42,472 nucleotides of DNA from a virus. The translations under genes and the position numbers were made by a program. Below the pieces are notes generated by a model. The model was not told the origin of the DNA and made no database searches. It saw nothing but the letters and a program-made list of their open reading frames with translations. Below are positions 2,618 through 39,819 of this stretch, one piece after another. Where the stretch lies: the UHGV virus genome UHGV-0206950; one strand, 5' to 3'. The stretch's first letter is position 1. The number at the start of each line of letters is the position of its first letter.

Positions 2618-2655
2618 AACGCCTGACCAGCGTGAAATACAATGAGGAAAGACCA

Positions 2656-3336
2656 ATGACCGATTTAATTTATCCTAAAGTAGCGACAGTTGACGATGCC
2701 TGTGACTGGACGAACGTAATCATCTGGCGGATGAACGCAGGTGCCAGGGCTCGCAGCCGTTCGGTTTATGTACCTTGTCCGCGTCCGGTTCCTGTTCCGG
2801 GATTAACTGCTCGCGCGGCCCCAAAAAATAAAAAATCAAAACCTGTTGAAACCAACCCACGGTGTTTCAGTAAGACGCATACCGGAACCGTTATTTATTC
2901 AGGTGGAGAGAAGACAGTAAAACTTCGCGAAACGGCAACTGTGTGGACTTCCGGAAGCAAAGAGAATTACGACAAAAAAACGGGCTATAGGGTAGGTATT
3001 ACCAGCCGCTGTCGTCTGCTTCTGGATACCATAAAACCCATTGAGAACCCCACTGAATCCCAATTACCCCAAAAATCCAGCGAACTGCCGGCTGAATACC
3101 TGGTGGCGATTATGAAGGGTAAAACGCTCTCATATCAGGGGATCATGTCTGCTATTAAAAAATATTACCCGGACATCAAAATAAGTCTGGATCAACTACA
3201 GAAACGCGTCTTTGCGCTTTGCATGTCGAATTTTGTTGGCATTGAGCGGCATGACGACATGCCCGTTACACACTTCACGCTGAAAAGCGTTGATCCCCGT
3301 TTCTACGTTCACTCAGAGAAAAACATGAGGGCTTAA
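2656..3336 (+). CDS. hypothetical early protein (227 aa)
   Basis: ATG at 2656 preceded by GAGGAAAGACCAATG motif (2644-2658); long ORF, no recognisable motifs. Confidence 0.5.
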   Translation: MTDLIYPKVATVDDACDWTNVIIWRMNAGARARSRSVYVPCPRPVPVPGLTARAAPKNKKSKPVETNPRCFSKTHTGTVIYSGGEKTVKLRETATVWTSGSKENYDKKTGYRVGITSRCRLLLDTIKPIENPTESQLPQKSSELPAEYLVAIMKGKTLSYQGIMSAIKKYYPDIKISLDQLQKRVFALCMSNFVGIERHDDMPVTHFTLKSVDPRFYVHSEKNMRA

Positions 3337-3339
3337 GGC

Positions 3340-3588
3340 ATGACCGGGCAATCGGATTATCTCCCGCCCGGTCTCCCGCTCAATCGTGCTAAATGGCCAC
3401 AAGAGTGCCAACTCAAGGAGCATTACGACATGCGCGCCGCCGCGCTCGTTCGTCAGCTCTATGAGCGGAAAGTTACTCGCCAGACGGTTATTCAGCACAT
3501 TGACGCGACGCCGGAGAGTTATCGGGATTTTTTCAGAGAACGTTTGAATTACTGGCGCCAGCAGCACGAAGGGGGAAAGAGTGAATAA
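3340..3588 (+). CDS. hypothetical protein (82 aa)
   Basis: ORF with AAGG SD-like sequence; tightly packed between neighbouring genes. Confidence 0.4.
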   Translation: MTGQSDYLPPGLPLNRAKWPQECQLKEHYDMRAAALVRQLYERKVTRQTVIQHIDATPESYRDFFRERLNYWRQQHEGGKSE

Positions 3589-4183
3589 AAAGTACACGTT
3601 AATTTATGCGGATCCTCCCTGGGAATACAGAGACAAAGCAGCGGATGGTGACCGCGGCGCCGGGTTTAAATATCCGGTGATGAATGTTCTAGATATTTGC
3701 CGTCTTCCTGTGTGGGATCTCGCTGCTGAAAGTAGCCTGCTGGCTATGTGGTGGGTTCCGACGCAGCCGCTTGAAGCACTGAAGGTAGTTGAGGCATGGG
3801 GGTTTCGTTTGATGACAATGAAAGGCTTTACCTGGAACAAGTGCGGAAGCCGTCAGACAGAAAAATTGGTAATGGGAATGGGGCATATGACCCGTGCTAA
3901 TAGTGAAGATTGCCTTTTTGCAATTAAGGGGAAACTCCCTGAGCGTATTGATGCTGGGATTATCCAGTCATTTACAGCGCCTCGTCTGGCTCATTCACAA
4001 AAACCTGACTTTGTGCGTGAAAAGTTAGTTCAACTGTTGGGTGACGTACCACGTATAGAACTATTTGCGCGCCAGTCATCACATGGCTTTGACGTATGGG
4101 GAAATGAGTGTGGTTCGTCTGATGTAATGCTGCTGCCAGGAATAGCTGAATTTATCAAGGAAGATAGGGAGAGTGCTGCATGA
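3581..4183 (+). CDS. N6-adenine DNA methyltransferase, MT-A70 family
   Basis: N-terminal YTLIYADPPWEY (DPPW catalytic motif typical of MT-A70 family phage adenine MTases); GTG start after GGGGGA. Confidence 0.75.
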   Translation: MNKKYTLIYADPPWEYRDKAADGDRGAGFKYPVMNVLDICRLPVWDLAAESSLLAMWWVPTQPLEALKVVEAWGFRLMTMKGFTWNKCGSRQTEKLVMGMGHMTRANSEDCLFAIKGKLPERIDAGIIQSFTAPRLAHSQKPDFVREKLVQLLGDVPRIELFARQSSHGFDVWGNECGSSDVMLLPGIAEFIKEDRESAA

Positions 4184-4935
4184 CAAAGCCAGCAACAATT
4201 CTTGATATGTGCTGCGGCTCCCGCATGTTCTGGTTCAACAAGCATGACACCCGTGCTGTGTTCACTGATATCCGCACCGAAGAGCACGAGCTGTGCGACG
4301 GTCGCCGCCTGGTTATCAGTCCCGACCTGATTGCCGACTTTCGTTCACTGCCGTTCGCTGATTCTTCTTTTCCGGTTGTGGTGTTTGACCCGCCACATCT
4401 GGAGCGTGTGGGCCAGTCTGCCTGGATGGGTAAAAAATACGGGAGACTGAACAAAAAAACGTGGCGTTCTGATTTGCGAACAGGATTCAAAGAAGCTTTC
4501 CGCGTGCTGCGGCCACACGGCGTGCTCATCTTCAAATGGAACGAAACGCAGATACCGGTTAGCCAGATTCTGGCGCTTACAGATGTGAAACCTGCAATTG
4601 GCCAGCGTACCGGAAAGAACGACAAAACCCACTGGATAATATTTACGAAAGAAACTGGTGACGATACCTGCAATCTCAAAAGCGCCCTCCTTGATAGCGC
4701 ATACCGTAGATTACATGAGCTGGAGAGTTTGCTTCTTCCCGAGGTGCCAGAAACAGTCTGGCCAGTTGAGGTCAAGATGATTTTTGAGCAAATAAACAAC
4801 GCCGAGAGTCTGCCTGAACATCACCAAAGGCGACTAAAGCATCATATCAATCGCATGTGGTTAGAAAAAATGTCAGCACAGGAGATTGTGATTGCTGCTC
4901 GTTCGCTAATGAATGCAATGGAGAAATACGCGTGA
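4180..4935 (+). CDS. class I SAM-dependent (probable DNA) methyltransferase with DPPH motif plus about 90-aa C-terminal extension
   Basis: motif I-like ILDMCCGSRMFW followed by VVVFDPPHL (motif IV-like); ATGA overlap with upstream MTase. Confidence 0.55.
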   Translation: MTKPATILDMCCGSRMFWFNKHDTRAVFTDIRTEEHELCDGRRLVISPDLIADFRSLPFADSSFPVVVFDPPHLERVGQSAWMGKKYGRLNKKTWRSDLRTGFKEAFRVLRPHGVLIFKWNETQIPVSQILALTDVKPAIGQRTGKNDKTHWIIFTKETGDDTCNLKSALLDSAYRRLHELESLLLPEVPETVWPVEVKMIFEQINNAESLPEHHQRRLKHHINRMWLEKMSAQEIVIAARSLMNAMEKYA

Positions 4936-7067
4936 GAGAAATCATCGTTGATAATTTTGCTGGTGGTGGCGGTGCGTCAACCGGTATTGAAATGGCGATC
5001 GGTCGCAGTGTTGATATAGCAATCAACCACGATGAGAACGCTGTGGCGATGCACACTACGAATCACCCTGATACGCTGCACTATTGCGAGTCTGTGTATG
5101 AGGTTCGCCCAAAGGTAGCAACTGCGGGGCGCCCGGTGGCGCTGGCGTGGTTTTCTCCTGATTGCCGCCACTTTTCTAAAGCCAAGGGCGCTAAACCTGT
5201 CGAGAAAGCTATCCGTGGACTGGCATGGGTTGTGCTGCGTTGGGGGCTGGATGTTGAACCACGGGTAATGAAACTGGAGAACGTCGAAGAGTTTAAAACG
5301 TGGGGACCATTATTACGTGAAATGCCATTCATCAGTCACGCGGATCGCTTTCTTGATGAATTTATCGGACCACCTGAGCCAGTTGAACAGCGTCCCGACC
5401 CAGCTCGAATTGGTGAAACTTTTAACGCCTTTGTCGCAATGCTTACAACCGGCATTTCTGCAGATCATCCGGCGCTGGCAGAATGCTGTGAGTTTCTGAA
5501 TATTTCGCTTGATAGCGATGACGCCGCGCGGCTGGTAAAAGGCCTGGGCTATGTAGTTGAGTATCGCGAACTGCGCGCCTGTGACTATGGCGCACCGACA
5601 ATCAGAAAGCGTTTCTTCATGGTTATGCGACGTGATGGGAAGCCGATTGTATGGCCGGAACCAACGCATGGGGATCCGAAATCACCTGCGGTTCAGGCTG
5701 GCAGGCTGGCGCCATGGCGTACAGCTGCGGAGTGTATCGACTGGTCAATTCCGGCTCTATCGATATTCGACCGCAAAAAGCCGCTTGCAGAAAATACCCT
5801 GAAGCGGATCGCGCGCGGCATACAGCGCTTTGTTATCGACAGTGCGTCGCCGTTCATCGTGAAGTGCAATCACACCAGCACCAAAACGAGTTACGACTGT
5901 TTCCGAGGTCAAGCGCTGGGCGAACCTTTGCAGACCATTACCAAAACCCACGGCTACGCGTTAGCCGTTCCACATCTGACAAAGTTCCGTACTGGCGCAA
6001 CCGGGCAGCCCGTTACCGAACCGGTACCGACAGTTACCGCTGGCACGTCAAAACGCCCGGGCGGGAATGGGCATGCACTCGGGATTGTTGAGGCTGCACT
6101 GACACCATTCCTGGCGGGTAATGGTGGTAGTGAATACCAGGCTAAACCGCGCCCGCTGGATAAACCTGCTCACACCATTTTGAAGCAATCCCGCGCCTGT
6201 CTGGTTGCGCCAGTGATAGCCCGCCAGTTTGGGGCCAGCATCGGCCACCGGGCAGATGAACCGAGCGCAACTATCACCGCTGGTGGTGGTGGTAAATCTC
6301 AACTGGTAACACCAACGTTGATCCAGATGGGCTATGGGGAACGTCCCGGACAAGAACCGCGTGTGCTGCGACTGGATAACCCGCTGGGTACCGTTACTGC
6401 AGGTGGGAATAAATTCGCGACGGTGAGCGCGTTCCTGGCAAAGCATTACGGCGGCAACTATACGGGCCCGGGCGTCGGTTTAGATGAGCCTGTTCATTCA
6501 GTTACCACGGTTGATCACCACGCAGTTGTCGCTGCGCATTTGATGGTCAATAACACCGGACATCCCGGCGGCACACTGGACAATCCGGCTCATACTGTAA
6601 CGACAGGAAATCATCATGCAGTGGTTGCCTCCCATCTGGTGAAACTGCGAGGTACCTGCCGGGATGGGCAGCCAACCAGTGAACCAGTGCCAACGGTGAC
6701 GGCGGGCGGGCTGCACGTAGGGGAGGTGAAAACCACTCTTGCGGTCGATGAGTACGACGAATATCGCGCTCAGCAGACGCTTGAGTTTCTGCGGGAATAC
6801 TGCGGCGAGGATTGCGACGGGCTGGTGACAGTTGGCGGCATAACTTACCGCATCGTTGATATTGGCATGCGTATGCTGCAACCGCACGAGCTATACCGTG
6901 CGCAGGGCTTCCCGGAGTGGTACATCATCGACCAGGACTATCGGGGCAAGAAGTATGCGAAAGACAAGCAGGTTGCGCGATGCGGTAACGCCGTGCCACC
7001 GCCGTTTGCAGAGGCGCTGGTGAAGGCTAATTTGCCTGAATTATGCGTAAGCAGGGAGGCCGCGTAA
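4932..7067 (+). CDS. DNA (cytosine-5) methyltransferase with greatly expanded variable region containing about 7 tandem TRD-like repeats
   Basis: GTG start overlapping upstream TGA (GTGA); motif I IVDNFAGGGGAS, motif IV-like FSPDCRHFSKA, motif VI KLENVEEF, motif X CGNAVPPPF at C-terminus; repeats PVPTVTAGTS / PSATITAGGGG / PLGTVTAGGNK / PVHSVTTVDHH / PAHTVTTGNHH / PVPTVTAGGLH between motifs VI and X. Confidence 0.75.
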   Translation: MREIIVDNFAGGGGASTGIEMAIGRSVDIAINHDENAVAMHTTNHPDTLHYCESVYEVRPKVATAGRPVALAWFSPDCRHFSKAKGAKPVEKAIRGLAWVVLRWGLDVEPRVMKLENVEEFKTWGPLLREMPFISHADRFLDEFIGPPEPVEQRPDPARIGETFNAFVAMLTTGISADHPALAECCEFLNISLDSDDAARLVKGLGYVVEYRELRACDYGAPTIRKRFFMVMRRDGKPIVWPEPTHGDPKSPAVQAGRLAPWRTAAECIDWSIPALSIFDRKKPLAENTLKRIARGIQRFVIDSASPFIVKCNHTSTKTSYDCFRGQALGEPLQTITKTHGYALAVPHLTKFRTGATGQPVTEPVPTVTAGTSKRPGGNGHALGIVEAALTPFLAGNGGSEYQAKPRPLDKPAHTILKQSRACLVAPVIARQFGASIGHRADEPSATITAGGGGKSQLVTPTLIQMGYGERPGQEPRVLRLDNPLGTVTAGGNKFATVSAFLAKHYGGNYTGPGVGLDEPVHSVTTVDHHAVVAAHLMVNNTGHPGGTLDNPAHTVTTGNHHAVVASHLVKLRGTCRDGQPTSEPVPTVTAGGLHVGEVKTTLAVDEYDEYRAQQTLEFLREYCGEDCDGLVTVGGITYRIVDIGMRMLQPHELYRAQGFPEWYIIDQDYRGKKYAKDKQVARCGNAVPPPFAEALVKANLPELCVSREAA

Positions 7068-7405
7068 TGGCAAAATCAGCAGCAGAGCGCAAAGCAGCAC
7101 AGCGTGCCCGCCAGTCTGCTGCTGGTGGGCGGAAACTTGAACTGGTGCTGGATGCGCAGGAACTGGAAATGCTTGCCCGAAATTGCGCAGATCGTCGACC
7201 AGGCCGCACACCGTATGAAATGGGGGAATATATAGCGCTTCTCATTCGCCAGGATGATGCGCGTGTAAAGGGGCAGATAAAATCAATCCGCGCAAATAAA
7301 TGCAACAAGTGCGGTGACTCATTACCGGTTAAAGCATGCCCATGCGCAGGTGATTCTCAGTGCTGGGTTACACACGGATGGCATGTAGTAAAACTGACAA
7401 CGTGA
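7067..7405 (+). CDS. hypothetical basic/Cys-rich protein (112 aa)
   Basis: TAATG overlap with MTase stop, AGGGAGG SD; C-terminal CNKCGDSLPVKACPCAGDSQC cluster. Confidence 0.45.
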   Translation: MAKSAAERKAAQRARQSAAGGRKLELVLDAQELEMLARNCADRRPGRTPYEMGEYIALLIRQDDARVKGQIKSIRANKCNKCGDSLPVKACPCAGDSQCWVTHGWHVVKLTT

Positions 7406-7413: not shown

Positions 7414-7436
7414 GATACCCTAACACCTTAAAACGA

Positions 7437-7463
7437 ACCGCCAGAAAATGGCGGTTTTTCTTT
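7437..7463 (+). terminator. rho-independent terminator (7-bp GC stem accgcca/tggcggt, loop gaaaa, T-tract)
   Basis: accgccagaaaatggcggtttttcttt read directly. Confidence 0.7.
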
Positions 7464-33691: not shown

Positions 33692-33897
33692 GCAGTTCCC
33701 CACGTGGGTAGCCCATTGCTACCCACAACACGCTTCATTCCCTCCGGTGGTACACCTAAAAACTCCAGAGCCATATCGTCATCGACGGGCTTAATATCAT
33801 CAGGCAAAACGCCATTTGCACGGTATGCGTCGAGTAACACTGTCGGGTAAAATTGATTCGTTGACGCGCTATAAAAGTAAATATTCATTATCACCAC
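33688..33897 (-). CDS. alternative tail fibre assembly protein (inverted orientation; U'-like)
   Basis: N-terminus MNIYFYSASTNQFYP matches common Tfa N-termini; convergent with and overlapping Tfa by 4 nt. Confidence 0.5.
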   Translation of the reverse strand: MVIMNIYFYSASTNQFYPTVLLDAYRANGVLPDDIKPVDDDMALEFLGVPPEGMKRVVGSNGLPTWGTA

Positions 33898-34265
33898 CCC
33901 TTCGCATACCAGTTACATGTCAAATTCGCCGGATTGACGTTATTACCCTCTGCGGTTGCGCAGCCAACTCTGAATTTTGAGTTACTGACAGGGAATGCCT
34001 GTGAAATCTCAGCATATGACGTGTCATTCGGATCTGAGCTAATCAAAACGAACGCACAACGGTTCGGGAACGGGATGACGAAATCCCCATCGCCGTTTCC
34101 ATAATTACCGCGCCCCCACTGCTCCAGAAATCCGTCTGGAGTCAATCGCCACCCGTAATCCGCTTTCAGCGATGTCCACTTGCTCATGTCGGGGATCTGG
34201 TTTGTCCCGGTCCCTACATCCCTTTTTGCCGCTTCTCCCAGACCAACGTTTTTAATAATGATCAT
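33891..34265 (-). CDS. alternative tail fibre C-terminal variable segment (S'v-like) in inverted orientation
   Basis: ORF opposite the fibre gene, lacks own N-terminal constant part; in-frame TAA immediately upstream of its ATG; lies between Tfa' and invertase as in Mu/P1 invertible segments. Confidence 0.45.
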   Translation of the reverse strand: MIIIKNVGLGEAAKRDVGTGTNQIPDMSKWTSLKADYGWRLTPDGFLEQWGRGNYGNGDGDFVIPFPNRCAFVLISSDPNDTSYAEISQAFPVSNSKFRVGCATAEGNNVNPANLTCNWYAKGW

Positions 34266-34312: not shown

Positions 34313-34733
34313 ATGCTGATTGGCTATGTACGCGTGTCAACAAATGACCAGAACACTGCACTCCAGCGAAACGCGCTCGAGAGTGCAGGATGTGAACTGA
34401 TATTCGAAGATAAGATCAGCGGTAAGGTGTCCGACAGACCAGGATTAAAATACGAGTACGCCTATGGGGAGATTCTTCTTTCATGTTATGGGTGCACTGG
34501 CCGAAATGGAAAGGGAGCTTATTGTCGAACGCACCCGCGCCGGTTTAGCAGCCGCACGCGCAGAAGGGCGGATAGGTGGAAGGCGCCCGAAGTTTAGTAG
34601 TGAAGAATGGGCGCAAATGGGACGATTGATAAAAAATGGAATGGCGCGAAAGCAGGTTTCAATTATTTACGATGTTGGAGTATCTACACTGTACAAAAAA
34701 TTCCCTGTGTCTATATGTGAGGTCGGAAACTAG
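34313..34733 (+). pseudogene. Gin/Hin/Cin-family serine DNA invertase disrupted by internal deletion of about 140 bp with frameshift
   Basis: N-terminus MLIGYVRVSTNDQNTALQRNALESAGCELIFEDKISGKVSDRPGLK matches invertases; after RPGLK the frame is lost; downstream ORF in another frame resumes MGRFFFHVMGALAEMERELIVERTRAGLAAARAEGRIGGRRPKF...YDVGVSTLYKK; about 50 residues of the catalytic domain missing. Confidence 0.7.
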
Positions 34734-36991: not shown

Positions 36992-37546
36992 TTAACGTAC
37001 CTGTAGTGAGCGTTCGCCGATCTCAAGGTGAGCACCCGGTACCGGATTTAACAATTCTGCTGGTACTTCACCACCATCAGCCGTGATTTGCGCTGCGGCA
37101 GCTTCCGCAGCCTCGATCGCTTCTTTGATGGCTTTTTTGTCCGGAGCGACAATCGTCTGAACAGTAACCAACTCATCCGGTAATAGCTTTTCGTTGTCGA
37201 TAACAACGCTGACGCTACCTTTTCGGGCGGTAAAGCTATTCTTAGGGGTCTTGAGTTTGTCCAGATTGGCAGCAAGCAGGCAAGACAGAATATATTTACG
37301 AAGCGTTTTATCTTTATTTTCGAAAGACTTTTTACGCTCAGCCAGGCGCTTTATTTCTTCATCGCATGTTTTGGCATGGCCAAGGTTATTACGTGCAATG
37401 ACCATGATGGCATCCAGCTTATCCGCCAGTTCCCCTTCAATTCCTTCCAGTGTATCGGTGATCATCTCCGGAGTTAGTTCATCAGAGCTTTCCAGCAATT
37501 GCAGAAGGTTGGTGTAGTCAGCAGCTAATGCGATTGCAGTAGTCAT
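36992..37546 (-). CDS. Gp157-family protein (recombination-module associated)
   Basis: resembles siphovirus Gp157-family proteins by recollection; sits directly downstream of Erf-like gene with ATGA-type coupling. Confidence 0.45.
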   Translation of the reverse strand: MTTAIALAADYTNLLQLLESSDELTPEMITDTLEGIEGELADKLDAIMVIARNNLGHAKTCDEEIKRLAERKKSFENKDKTLRKYILSCLLAANLDKLKTPKNSFTARKGSVSVVIDNEKLLPDELVTVQTIVAPDKKAIKEAIEAAEAAAAQITADGGEVPAELLNPVPGAHLEIGERSLQVR

Positions 37547-39819
37547 TATGCATTCTCCTGGGATTTGTTCAGTTCAGCGATACGTTCATCTTTGATGGTT
37601 GTCAGGCGACGCAGGCGCCCACTTAAATAGCGCGCATGTTGCGTGTCACCCTTCGCCTCTGCGTCCTTGCGATGCACCTCTGCTTCACGGGCAATCGAAG
37701 AATAAACCTTGTTGATCTCGTTCTCTGACACAGCTGATGCAAGGGTGTTTGCGACTTTGGTCAGTTTATCGTCCAGTTCCTGACGTACGCGGGCTGCATC
37801 CTCTGCGTTTTCGCTGGCGTTTTTGAGCGCAAATTCAGCTTTATTTTTCTGGCGATATTCCGGGTTATCGTACAGTCCCATGAAAATGTCAGCGCAGAAA
37901 CCAAGTGCAGACAGCGCTTTTTTGGTTGCGTCAGTCAGTGATTTTTTTGTCGCTTCACCATCGCAGATAGGGCCGTATTTACTGCCGTAGATATACGGGG
38001 TACACCCGAATGAAATCTCTTCACCGCGCGCACCATTCCGGATGTACCAAAGTCTGATTTTGATAACGTGGTGTTTCTCTGTCAGGATGCCGCCTACACC
38101 GTCGGGGATAAACTCCCATGTATTGTTACCGTCAGTCCCTTTGACTGTGCGAGTAATTGGCGCGCCATCGTCAAAGCGTTCCTCCAGAATATCGACACCC
38201 CAGCCGATACCTTTCGGACCAAATTCGCGGGTGGCGATCATGGTCATGTAGGTGCCATTGATTGAGGTTCCACCGCCATTCACAGAGAACGCGGAGGTAA
38301 AGCGTTCGTCTGTTTTGAATACTTCTTTCCACAACTCCAGGTTGTCGCTTTCGCCAGCCTGCATTTCATTAATGCTTTTAACCAGTTCGGACGCCTGGGG
38401 AAGCTGTTCTTCACGCTTAACACGCTCGACGAGCTGATCCGCATCCTGAACAATTGTTTTCACTTTATCACTCAGATTTTCATCCTGTTGAACGGTTGTA
38501 TCTTGGCTGGTCGCATATACTCCGTACCCCATATTATTTAGCGTTTCACGAGCTTGTTCCGCCTGGTCTTCTGTAACTCTTTCCTGTTCTGCCACTTCCG
38601 TTTTTTCACCTTCATTTGAGGCTGTTTCAGGCATAGTTCCATCACGCGAAAGCGTTTTGTCATCTTGGGTTGAATCCTGGGGTTGGGTATTGGTTTTAAC
38701 CCATTTAGGATCATCAGAGTCGCTGATACCGTCCACATATTCGCCGCGTTCTGCCGCAAGCTGCTTGCCGGTTCTTTCTGCATCCGTTTCGGCACATTCG
38801 AGTTGACCATGTTCAGCCAGCCATGAATCAATATGGCGTCGCAGTGACTCAGGGAAATGGTATGTATCTTTAGATGGGACATTCTGAATAACCCCAAAGA
38901 TACTCGGGCGGTCATATTTGAGAATCTGCACGGTAGTACGCAATGCAGCTGACCAACGTTTGAAATCCTCCCGGTCATCGGAAATCATTTTTTCTGCATC
39001 ACGGAGATTGCCTGATAACACAGGCGCATCAGGCGCGATGGGAAGTAGGGCAACGGCAATTTCCTGATCCAGTGTTGCGTAGGTGTGTTTATAACTACGT
39101 TGTGGCGCTACAGCTACATTGTCATTTTTAACGCAGGTACTGAGTGATGATGTTTTGTTTGGTACCATCTCATCACGCTTACCTGGGTTTTCCAGCCAGC
39201 GTTTAATAAATTGTGAAATCGCAGCTTTACCCGGTGTCTGATCTTCAAAGTTTGCGTAAATGGCCTGAATGAGATTATTAAGGCCTTCAACATGCATATG
39301 CTGCACGGGTTCGTTATTGTGCAGCGCGTGGAGAATATTGAGATTAACCCGATCATCCTCATCAAAGGATTCATCGTTATTTTCCAGATTATCGAGATAA
39401 TCCAGCACCTGAGAGTAAAGAACTCCATCGATGGGAGAATCGCTGAACATAAGGACGGCCGCGAAGCGTTCCCGGGATGGTAGCTTTGCCAGATCGATAA
39501 TCTCGTTACTGGCTGGCAGGTTTGAAACGTTGGTCTCCGGCTCGTTGATGATCCATTTTTCCCCATCGAATGTGTGTGCCAGGGCAAATTGTTCATCGAA
39601 CTTACCAACAGCCGGCAGCGGCAGACCTTCAGCATGTTCCCATAACTTGGGTTTGAAATAGTTGTCACCGTTGGCAGGGTAGGCTTCCCAGAGTTTGCCG
39701 GTCATGATGCTTTCTGCCACTTTTTTGTTTGGCGCATCAATTGCGATCGCCAGTTGAACGGCCCCGCAATCTTTAACCGCTGATTTTTTTGGCTCAAATA
39801 AGCCGTTGTAGATGGTCAT
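37546..39819 (-). CDS. Erf-family single-strand annealing protein with about 480-aa N-terminal extension of unknown function
   Basis: C-terminal third carries Erf-like block (…KSLTDATKKALSALGFCADIFMGLYD; cf. P22 Erf …SSYARKYCLNGLFGIDD); start preceded by GAGGAAAGACCAATG motif. Confidence 0.5.
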   Translation of the reverse strand: MTIYNGLFEPKKSAVKDCGAVQLAIAIDAPNKKVAESIMTGKLWEAYPANGDNYFKPKLWEHAEGLPLPAVGKFDEQFALAHTFDGEKWIINEPETNVSNLPASNEIIDLAKLPSRERFAAVLMFSDSPIDGVLYSQVLDYLDNLENNDESFDEDDRVNLNILHALHNNEPVQHMHVEGLNNLIQAIYANFEDQTPGKAAISQFIKRWLENPGKRDEMVPNKTSSLSTCVKNDNVAVAPQRSYKHTYATLDQEIAVALLPIAPDAPVLSGNLRDAEKMISDDREDFKRWSAALRTTVQILKYDRPSIFGVIQNVPSKDTYHFPESLRRHIDSWLAEHGQLECAETDAERTGKQLAAERGEYVDGISDSDDPKWVKTNTQPQDSTQDDKTLSRDGTMPETASNEGEKTEVAEQERVTEDQAEQARETLNNMGYGVYATSQDTTVQQDENLSDKVKTIVQDADQLVERVKREEQLPQASELVKSINEMQAGESDNLELWKEVFKTDERFTSAFSVNGGGTSINGTYMTMIATREFGPKGIGWGVDILEERFDDGAPITRTVKGTDGNNTWEFIPDGVGGILTEKHHVIKIRLWYIRNGARGEEISFGCTPYIYGSKYGPICDGEATKKSLTDATKKALSALGFCADIFMGLYDNPEYRQKNKAEFALKNASENAEDAARVRQELDDKLTKVANTLASAVSENEINKVYSSIAREAEVHRKDAEAKGDTQHARYLSGRLRRLTTIKDERIAELNKSQENA

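Follow-up and report, generated by a model that had tools for sequence, protein, structure and literature searches.

The viral genome UHGV-0206950, whose full stretch of 42,472 nucleotides (nt), read on one strand, is referred to below as the window, is a complete-looking temperate phage genome of the lambdoid type. Its right arm contains three consecutive methyltransferase genes (Table 1): gene 1 of the MT-A70 family, gene 2 with a DPPH methyltransferase core and gene 3, which encodes a large C5-cytosine DNA methyltransferase (C5 enzyme). The stable unit at this and related loci is a module of about 85 amino acids (aa) followed by the C5 enzyme, and the gene upstream of the module is exchangeable, being of the MT-A70, phage Dam, N6_N4 or DPPH type, or missing altogether.

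Table 1. Positions of the cassette genes, their parts and the flanking features in the window
Feature	Position	Strand	Basis
Theta-like gene (82 aa), coupled upstream	3340..3588	+	PHROG 1105, stop/start overlap
Gene 1, MT-A70-family methyltransferase (200 aa)	3581..4183	+	Pfam PF05063, PHROG 359
Gene 2, DPPH methyltransferase core plus C-terminal module (251 aa)	4180..4935	+	PHROG 954, motifs
Gene 2, N-terminal ~160 aa, small class I S-adenosylmethionine (SAM)-dependent amino-methyltransferase core	4180..4659	+	motifs, PHROG 954
Gene 2, C-terminal ~85 aa (residues ~166-251), helical module	4675..4935	+	homologue in E. coli prophage L001, linkage
Gene 3, C5-cytosine DNA methyltransferase (711 aa)	4932..7067	+	Pfam PF00145, motifs
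Gene 3, variable insert of about 21-22 aa (around aa 129-150), between motifs VI and VIII	5316..5381	+	alignment
Gene 3, array of eight tandem 32-48-aa units (aa 328-607), between motifs VIII and IX	5913..6752	+	regular expression, unit hidden Markov model
Gene 3, unit 3 (aa 394-428), 35-aa block, present or absent in close relatives	6111..6215	+	alignment, counts
Gene 3, 32-aa block (aa 529-560), one of two 'HHAVV' units (6/7), present or absent in close relatives	6516..6611	+	alignment, counts
112-aa gene, coupled downstream; Cys-rich C-terminus, annotated as transcriptional regulator family	7067..7405	+	PHROG 536 (E 3.4e-49)
Terminator-like hairpin: 9-bp stem, 5 GC pairs, T-rich tail	7435..7457	+	ahead of NinB/Q-like genes

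The methyltransferase genes and their coupling

Gene 3 was called mechanically as an open reading frame (ORF) of 736 aa at 4857-7067; the coupled GTG start at 4932, which gives 711 aa, was used instead. Its product matches the Pfam family DNA_methylase (PF00145) with an E-value of 1.7e-19 and displays motifs I (FAGGGG, aa 9-14), VI (ENV within LENVEE, aa 116-118), VIII (TIRKR, aa 223-227) and X (GNAV within CGNAVPP, aa 685-688), the motif residues being unchanged across the 77 and 127 family members of two alignments. Motif IV reads SPDC, and its catalytic Cys78 (nt 5163-5165) is conserved without exception and, by alignment, is the counterpart of the PPC-Q cysteine in 3g7u. In an AlphaFold2 model built on the 127-sequence alignment, the catalytic domain, outside the repeat region, reaches a predicted local distance difference test score (pLDDT) of 70-98, and Foldseek retrieves 3g7u (the prophage CP-933R methyltransferase), DNMT1, M.HhaI and M.HaeIII at E-values of 1e-9 to 1e-6. 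The SPDC family to which the enzyme belongs is very large, with 2541 clusters at 50% identity (E <= 1e-30), lengths of 470-1190 aa and members in both Proteobacteria and Firmicutes, among them the sequenced phages phiNP, ZF40 and phi105 and phages of Pseudomonas, Vibrio and Aeromonas; the extended motif SPDC[KRT]HFS is common to 105 of 150 family representatives. The variable insert between motifs VI and VIII occurs in a minority of relatives (occupancy 0.16-0.17) and is modelled at a pLDDT of about 40.

Gene 1 covers the whole Pfam MT-A70 profile (PF05063, positions 1-172 of 172; E 2.5e-22; 80 bits against a cut-off of 23.9), matches PHROG 359 (E 1e-112) and contains YADPPWEY at aa 9-16, with DPPW at aa 11-14. 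Its closest solved relatives are chains of the Tetrahymena MTA1 DNA N6-methyladenine methyltransferase (E 1.4e-12), in which DPPW is aligned. The catalytic domain with DPPW is shared at full length with METTL3 and MTA1; unlike these, gene 1 encodes a bare domain of 200 aa with no partner subunit visible, and its DNA target is deduced from context. Methylation of DNA at adenine N6 is the activity predicted for this bare catalytic MT-A70 domain.

Gene 2 reads as a fusion of a methyltransferase core and a helical module. The core, with motif I LDMCCGS and motif IV FDPPH, is common on its own, as proteins of about 157-162 aa in enterobacterial prophages, and its D70-P71-P72-H73 shows no change in 37 homologues. 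The module is characterized by the conserved core VWPxEV...LPxHHQxxLxxHINRMWLE and is predicted by AlphaFold2 to form four helices (pLDDT 66-83). It has no match in Pfam or the PDB, and no functional study of it was found in the literature. In the E. coli prophage L001 it is a separate ORF of 90 aa, 64% identical, that follows an N6_N4 enzyme.

A preliminary description of this DNA had named the three genes as MT-A70, DPPH-type and C5 DNA methyltransferases. The full-length Pfam match with DPPW present upholds the first of these assignments, and Pfam, motifs and modelled fold agree on the third; the SAM-binding and catalytic motifs are intact in all three genes, none of which carries the inactivated SAM-binding motifs that the description had considered. 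The ATGA/GTGA overlaps by which it had chained the three ORFs are likewise read from the sequence, as ATGA at 4180-4183, just behind GGGAGAG, between genes 1 and 2 and as GTGA at 4932-4935, behind a GGAGA Shine-Dalgarno sequence, between genes 2 and 3. The translational chain consists of five genes, not three. Upstream, the theta-like gene and gene 1 share an 8-nt overlap, GTGAATAA at 3581-3588, where gene 1 starts with GTG behind the Shine-Dalgarno sequence AAGGGGGA; downstream, gene 3 and the 112-aa gene meet in TAATG at 7065-7069, with a 1-nt overlap preceded by GGGAGG. The discrete three-gene operon of the preliminary description is therefore not sustained: the chain extends both ways, and conservation lies in the pair of module and C5 enzyme. 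Start/stop coupling is the norm across this genome, the ORF table containing at least eight further ATGA-type overlaps and four of 1 nt between adjacent plus-strand ORFs, and therefore does not single out the three methyltransferase genes or mark a methyltransferase cassette. The hairpin at 7435-7457, which is the strongest terminator-like hairpin within the first 10 kb, marks the end of the cassette block.

Linkage of the module to the C5 gene

The linkage of module and C5 gene was followed in both directions. The forward test comprised 80 fetched genome loci with a relative of the C5 enzyme, plus L001 and the window. In all 69 Enterobacterales loci (L001 and the window included) a single copy of the module immediately precedes the C5 gene, ending 4-8 nt inside it or just before its start; the 13 loci from other taxa (Paenibacillus, Cohnella, Clostridia, Achromobacter and others) lack the module. 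For the reverse test, IMG/VR was scanned with a degenerate DNA pattern for the HHINRMWLE motif of the module, which samples the closer subgroup only. Among the matches listed, the C5 gene begins 67-73 nt after the motif in 110 of the 115 viral contigs with enough downstream DNA, and the remaining five are remnants, truncated or rearranged.

The upstream position is exchangeable. The module stands alone, as an ORF of 85-98 aa, in about 30 genome loci and otherwise forms the C-terminus of a larger protein, the upstream gene often being fused to it through loss of the intervening stop. Its fusion partners include MT-A70, phage Dam (PF05869), a phosphoadenosine phosphosulfate (PAPS) reductase plus Dam, a ParB helix-turn-helix (HTH), a Cro/YdaS HTH and, in the window, the DPPH core. 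Prophage L001 has the same flanks and the same C5 gene as the window together with a different upstream methyltransferase. The window's own trio of MT-A70, DPPH core and C5 enzyme recurs, among the matches listed, in one other of 200 related loci, a near-identical viral contig, and the 112-aa regulator-like gene is no constant companion of the cassette, with 5 occurrences in 81 genome loci and 1 in 120 viral loci.

Several individual loci deserve mention beside these counts. The IMG/VR contig L188 is 99-100% identical to the window over gene 1, gene 2 and the regulator-like gene of 112 aa, and probably stems from the same phage or is the source of the window. A triple fusion of a PAPS-reductase-like domain, phage Dam and the module is encoded in L036 (3217-5001, Erwiniaceae) and in L039 (3268-5001, a Symbiopectobacterium prophage), and phages Flotzy and Eeyore, too, have PAPS-reductase-like genes as neighbours of the C5 gene. 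The Cro/YdaS HTH, which came up when the module was compared with Pfam and the PDB, is a separate N-terminal fusion partner in one locus. In two of the five viral contigs that have no C5 gene behind the module, its position is taken by a 401-aa ATPase-like ORF (L137, 3303-4505) and by a Dam-type (FRYPGGK) methyltransferase (L202, 2-604), which suggests that the slot is a hotspot for cassette replacement.

The tandem-unit array of the C5 enzyme

The eight units of the C5 enzyme occupy the site of the target-recognition domain (TRD) in C5 enzymes. Each starts with the pattern (L)(D)(E/N)-P-x-x-T-[VI]-T-[AT]-G-G, followed by a short hydrophobic stretch, and the region as a whole is rich in Gly, Thr, Pro and His. 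A regular expression for the unit finds eight matches against 0.17 expected (5000 shuffles, maximum 3), and a unit hidden Markov model (HMM) scores 27-37 bits on every unit of the window enzyme. At the DNA level the repeats are only about 71% alike; they are therefore old, and a recent DNA duplication was rejected as the origin of the units.

The number of units differs among relatives, ranging from 1 to 12 per enzyme across 150 family representatives. Homologues with 84% identity or more, of which 120 were counted, show every combination of presence and absence for unit 3, one of the two HH units (32 aa) and the 21-aa insert. Accessory status falls to units 2 and 3, the latter with an occupancy of 0.35-0.39 across the family.

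The array bears comparison with the multispecific enzymes of Bacillus phages (M.SPRI, M.Phi3TI, M.Rho11sI and M.H2I), which, like the window enzyme, are orphan, phage-borne and presumed to serve anti-restriction, and which likewise carry short tandem units with P/S-x-x-T-[LIV]-T between motifs VIII and IX. In the original records of the SPR, rho11s and H2 enzymes, three or four units with SPT[IL]TT or EPAFTVNT lie at the same position (GLSPTITTNKGEG, GVSPTLTTMGEG and DEPAFTVNTIDRHGVA are examples), and the TRDs mapped by Trautner and colleagues in 1996 are said to be about 40 aa each. The best BLASTP segment between the window and rho11s enzymes pairs unit 6, DEPVHSVTTVDHHAV, with the last rho11s unit, DEPAFTVNTIDRHGV, at an E-value of 0.023. 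The window enzyme differs from the Bacillus enzymes in having eight units rather than three or four, SPDC rather than SPC-Q, a Gram-negative host and a conserved upstream module of 85 aa, and homology between the units of the two groups is not statistically established.

That the array gives the C5 enzyme several target specificities is offered as a reasoned hypothesis, possible and deliberately tentative. Somewhat less probable is a reading in which the units are not separate recognition domains but together make up a single long repeat scaffold, or a flexible linker, with which the enzyme grips DNA; it would then have a single specificity or a very short, near non-specific one. A number of observations count against several specificities, and most of them would suit such a scaffold. 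Units 1 and 4-8 are widespread, with occupancies of 0.63-1.0 in members of about 50% identity, which fits a fixed multi-unit scaffold as well as independent specificity modules, and many positions within the units are nearly invariant. Unit HMMs, whether built from the eight window units or from 916 family units, score no higher on the SPR, rho11s and H2 enzymes than on shuffled controls, and the unit profile retrieves no C5 enzyme among PDB sequences, only chance matches to glucanases; the units are therefore putative, not proven, homologues of mapped TRDs. A profile-profile alignment of the C5 family with the rho11s enzyme is limited to motifs IV-VIII (probability 84%), and AlphaFold2 yields no confident fold for aa 306-607 (pLDDT 21-35), a result that may reflect scrambled alignment of the repeats. 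The scaffold, on the other hand, is at odds with the gain and loss of whole units, the reading frame kept, among near-identical relatives, and with the sharing of signature (P-x-x-T-[LIV]-T), size (32-48 aa) and position with the tandem units of the SPR, rho11s and H2 enzymes.

Genomic context and proposed role of the cassette

The right arm of the phage runs from a CII-like gene through an O-like initiator (249-1232), a DnaB helicase (1229-2617), a 234-aa ORF and the theta-like gene to the three methyltransferases and the regulator-like gene, and continues with NinB-like, DUF1364/HNH-like and Q-like genes and then the lysis, terminase and structural genes; the left arm comprises an integrase, an excisionase, a Mu Gam-like protein, a 757-aa exonuclease and a repressor. 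This position agrees with the rightward early operon of the preliminary description, which had also seen no restriction endonuclease partner: none was recognized with PHROGs or Pfam among 36 non-structural ORFs scanned, structural genes and ORFs below 70 aa lying outside the scan. The same description had placed expression before replication, which does not fit the gene order. The cassette lies downstream of the O-like initiator and DnaB genes in the same direction, and would therefore be expressed with or after them. No near-identical phage was found in INPHARED, where the cassette region is matched only piecewise, and the closest C5 protein, at 97% identity, is from Citrobacter.

Among the neighbouring genes, the theta-like protein matches PHROG 1105 (E 5.3e-30) and, weakly, Pfam DNA_pol3_theta; it resembles Hot of phage P1 and is not a methyltransferase. 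The adjacent 234-aa ORF (2632-3336, plus strand; PHROG 4183) shows in its C-terminal 80 aa a sub-threshold match to the late promoter-activating protein family of Bordetella phage BPP-1 (PF25716, E 4e-5). In the early-left operon (36992-39819, minus strand), the Mu Gam-like end-protection protein and the 757-aa exonuclease (PHROG 2489) take the place of lambda-type Exo/Bet. A Gin/Cin-type DNA invertase (34313-34733, plus strand) appears split across two overlapping frames, of which 34313-34597 matches the N-terminus and 34464-34733 residues ~120-202, and it adjoins an inverted tail-fibre C-terminal fragment (33891-34265, minus strand); the arrangement has the appearance of an invertible host-range segment in decay.

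A 2025 EcoSal review (PMC12707154) describes as anti-restriction devices both the lysogen-silent orphan methyltransferases that temperate phages carry and the multi-domain enzymes of Bacillus phages. Anti-restriction self-methylation, the standard role of phage orphan methyltransferases, is most likely here too, as the preliminary description had proposed, the broad scope that it gave to the protection being putative. The locus as a whole is probably best explained as a variable methylation cassette, situated between replication and NinB/Q-like genes, in a temperate phage of the lambdoid type with Citrobacter or related Enterobacteriaceae as hosts. Under repressor control during lysogeny, the cassette would be silent, as its position in the repressed rightward operon suggests. 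Upon induction or infection, the rightward early transcript would yield the three enzymes by coupled translation; these would methylate the replicating phage DNA at adenine N6 and cytosine C5, with SAM as donor, and progeny DNA, methylated in this way, would resist type I-III restriction on entry into the next host. The unit array may confer several, or relaxed, specificities on the C5 enzyme, as in the multispecific Bacillus phage enzymes, and the module could serve the C5 enzyme as an accessory or docking part, able to tether a partner adenine methyltransferase to it.

Several considerations speak against this explanation or parts of it. Motif IV of gene 3 has Asp-Cys and not the canonical Pro-Cys, and the literature yielded no functional study, methylation data or published specificity for any member of the SPDC family. 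Restriction of the McrBC/Mrr type is common in these hosts, and heavy C5 methylation would lay the phage open to it. The putative accessory or docking role of the module is derived purely from gene linkage and fusions, and the presumed DNA target of the gene 2 core from its motif and genomic slot.

The last point bears on the possibility, which appears unlikely, that the gene 2 core acts on RNA, protein or a small molecule, so that the cassette would contain two DNA methyltransferases and not three. The core matches only generic Pfam families, Methyltransf_11 at 22.7 bits and Methyltransf_25 below its cut-off, both weakly, and none of the curated DNA-methyltransferase families N6_N4_Mtase, Dam, MethyltransfD12 and N6_Mtase; NCBIfam returns only UbiE-like families far under cut-off, and no sequence relative was found in the PDB. 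The AlphaFold2 model of gene 2 is poor (pLDDT 62, with aa 1-58 below 50), and the weak Foldseek matches include the tRNA enzyme Trm11, an N4-cytosine methyltransferase and protein methyltransferases. The top match, however, is M.BceJIV, a DNA N6-adenine enzyme (E 2e-4; template modelling score 0.26), and the invariant DPPH right after strand 4 is an amino-methyltransferase signature. The core also occupies the same slot, with the same module fusion, as bona fide DNA adenine methyltransferases elsewhere, and it belongs with PHROG 954 (E 1e-85), whose members are annotated 'DNA methyltransferase', a name that is annotation only. Of the preliminary assignment of gene 2 as a DPPH-type DNA methyltransferase, the intact DPPH and SAM motifs thus stand, and the DNA target remains a deduction with no curated family match behind it.

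A service of the methyltransferases to the biology of the phage itself, through expression timing, replication or packaging signals or the reprogramming of host expression, is quite improbable for this cassette. In its favour, the viral cycle may be under the control of many orphan methyltransferases of phages, and Dam methylation at pac is a requirement of P1 (PMC12707154); a regulator-like gene is, moreover, coupled to the 3' end of the cassette. Against this stand the swapping of the upstream slot among unrelated enzyme families and the rarity of the regulator-like gene, a pattern that would be expected if the cassette took part in an arms race and not if it were a fixed regulatory circuit. 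Unit gain and loss, like the exchange in the upstream slot, has the look of arms-race variation.

The installation of a non-methyl group by the C5-like enzyme, such as a carboxymethyl group from carboxy-SAM as a handle for hypermodification, is very improbable and was rejected on Asn686 of motif X: the natural carboxymethyltransferase CmoX (8yf3), which shares the phage C5-methyltransferase fold, is among the structural matches of the catalytic domain, and enterobacterial hosts make carboxy-SAM, but the window enzyme and its whole family keep G685-N686. In CmoX, selectivity for carboxy-SAM depends on an Arg that replaces the motif X Asn (N304 in HhaI), and engineered M.MpeI needs N374K; CmoX also comes with CmoA and CmoY (PMC12783734). 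The window enzyme lacks such partners, no CmoA, ligase, TET or glycosyltransferase gene having been seen in the window among the ORFs scanned, and plain methyl transfer from SAM is the chemistry expected of gene 3.

As an anti-restriction device the cassette itself is ordinary, phage-borne orphan methyltransferases being a well-known means of escape from restriction. M.EcoGII and phage Dam (PF05869) share with it a place in the early region of temperate phages, the lack of an endonuclease partner and, as predicted for the cassette, silence in the lysogen; these are single adenine enzymes, whereas in loci of the window type a large C5 enzyme is chained to an adenine-type slot, in many cases with a fusion through the module. 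In Dmt of phage P1, an adenine and a cytosine methyltransferase are joined in one polypeptide, so that N6-adenine and C5-cytosine methylation are combined, as is predicted for the window, in one phage locus. The window enzymes are, by contrast, products of separate coupled genes, and their physical link, if any, would be provided by the 85-aa module.

Two features of the locus were not found in the literature searched, namely the obligate and unannotated 85-aa partner module and the eight-unit recognition-like array with modular gain and loss. A more far-reaching proposal, which must be regarded as doubtful, is that the SPDC enzymes form a very large multispecific class, mostly of Gram-negative phages, in which 2-12 plug-in units set the protected sites and the module is the docking subunit of a heteromeric adenine-plus-cytosine complex. 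If the units are indeed independent recognition domains, these would be the largest known multispecific enzymes and an instance of natural modular programming of cytosine methylation. The module is not assigned to any family, and a protein-protein or regulatory role is predicted from the way it behaves in genomes; a docking function, if true, would account for the recurrent fusions that join it with at least five unrelated partner domains.

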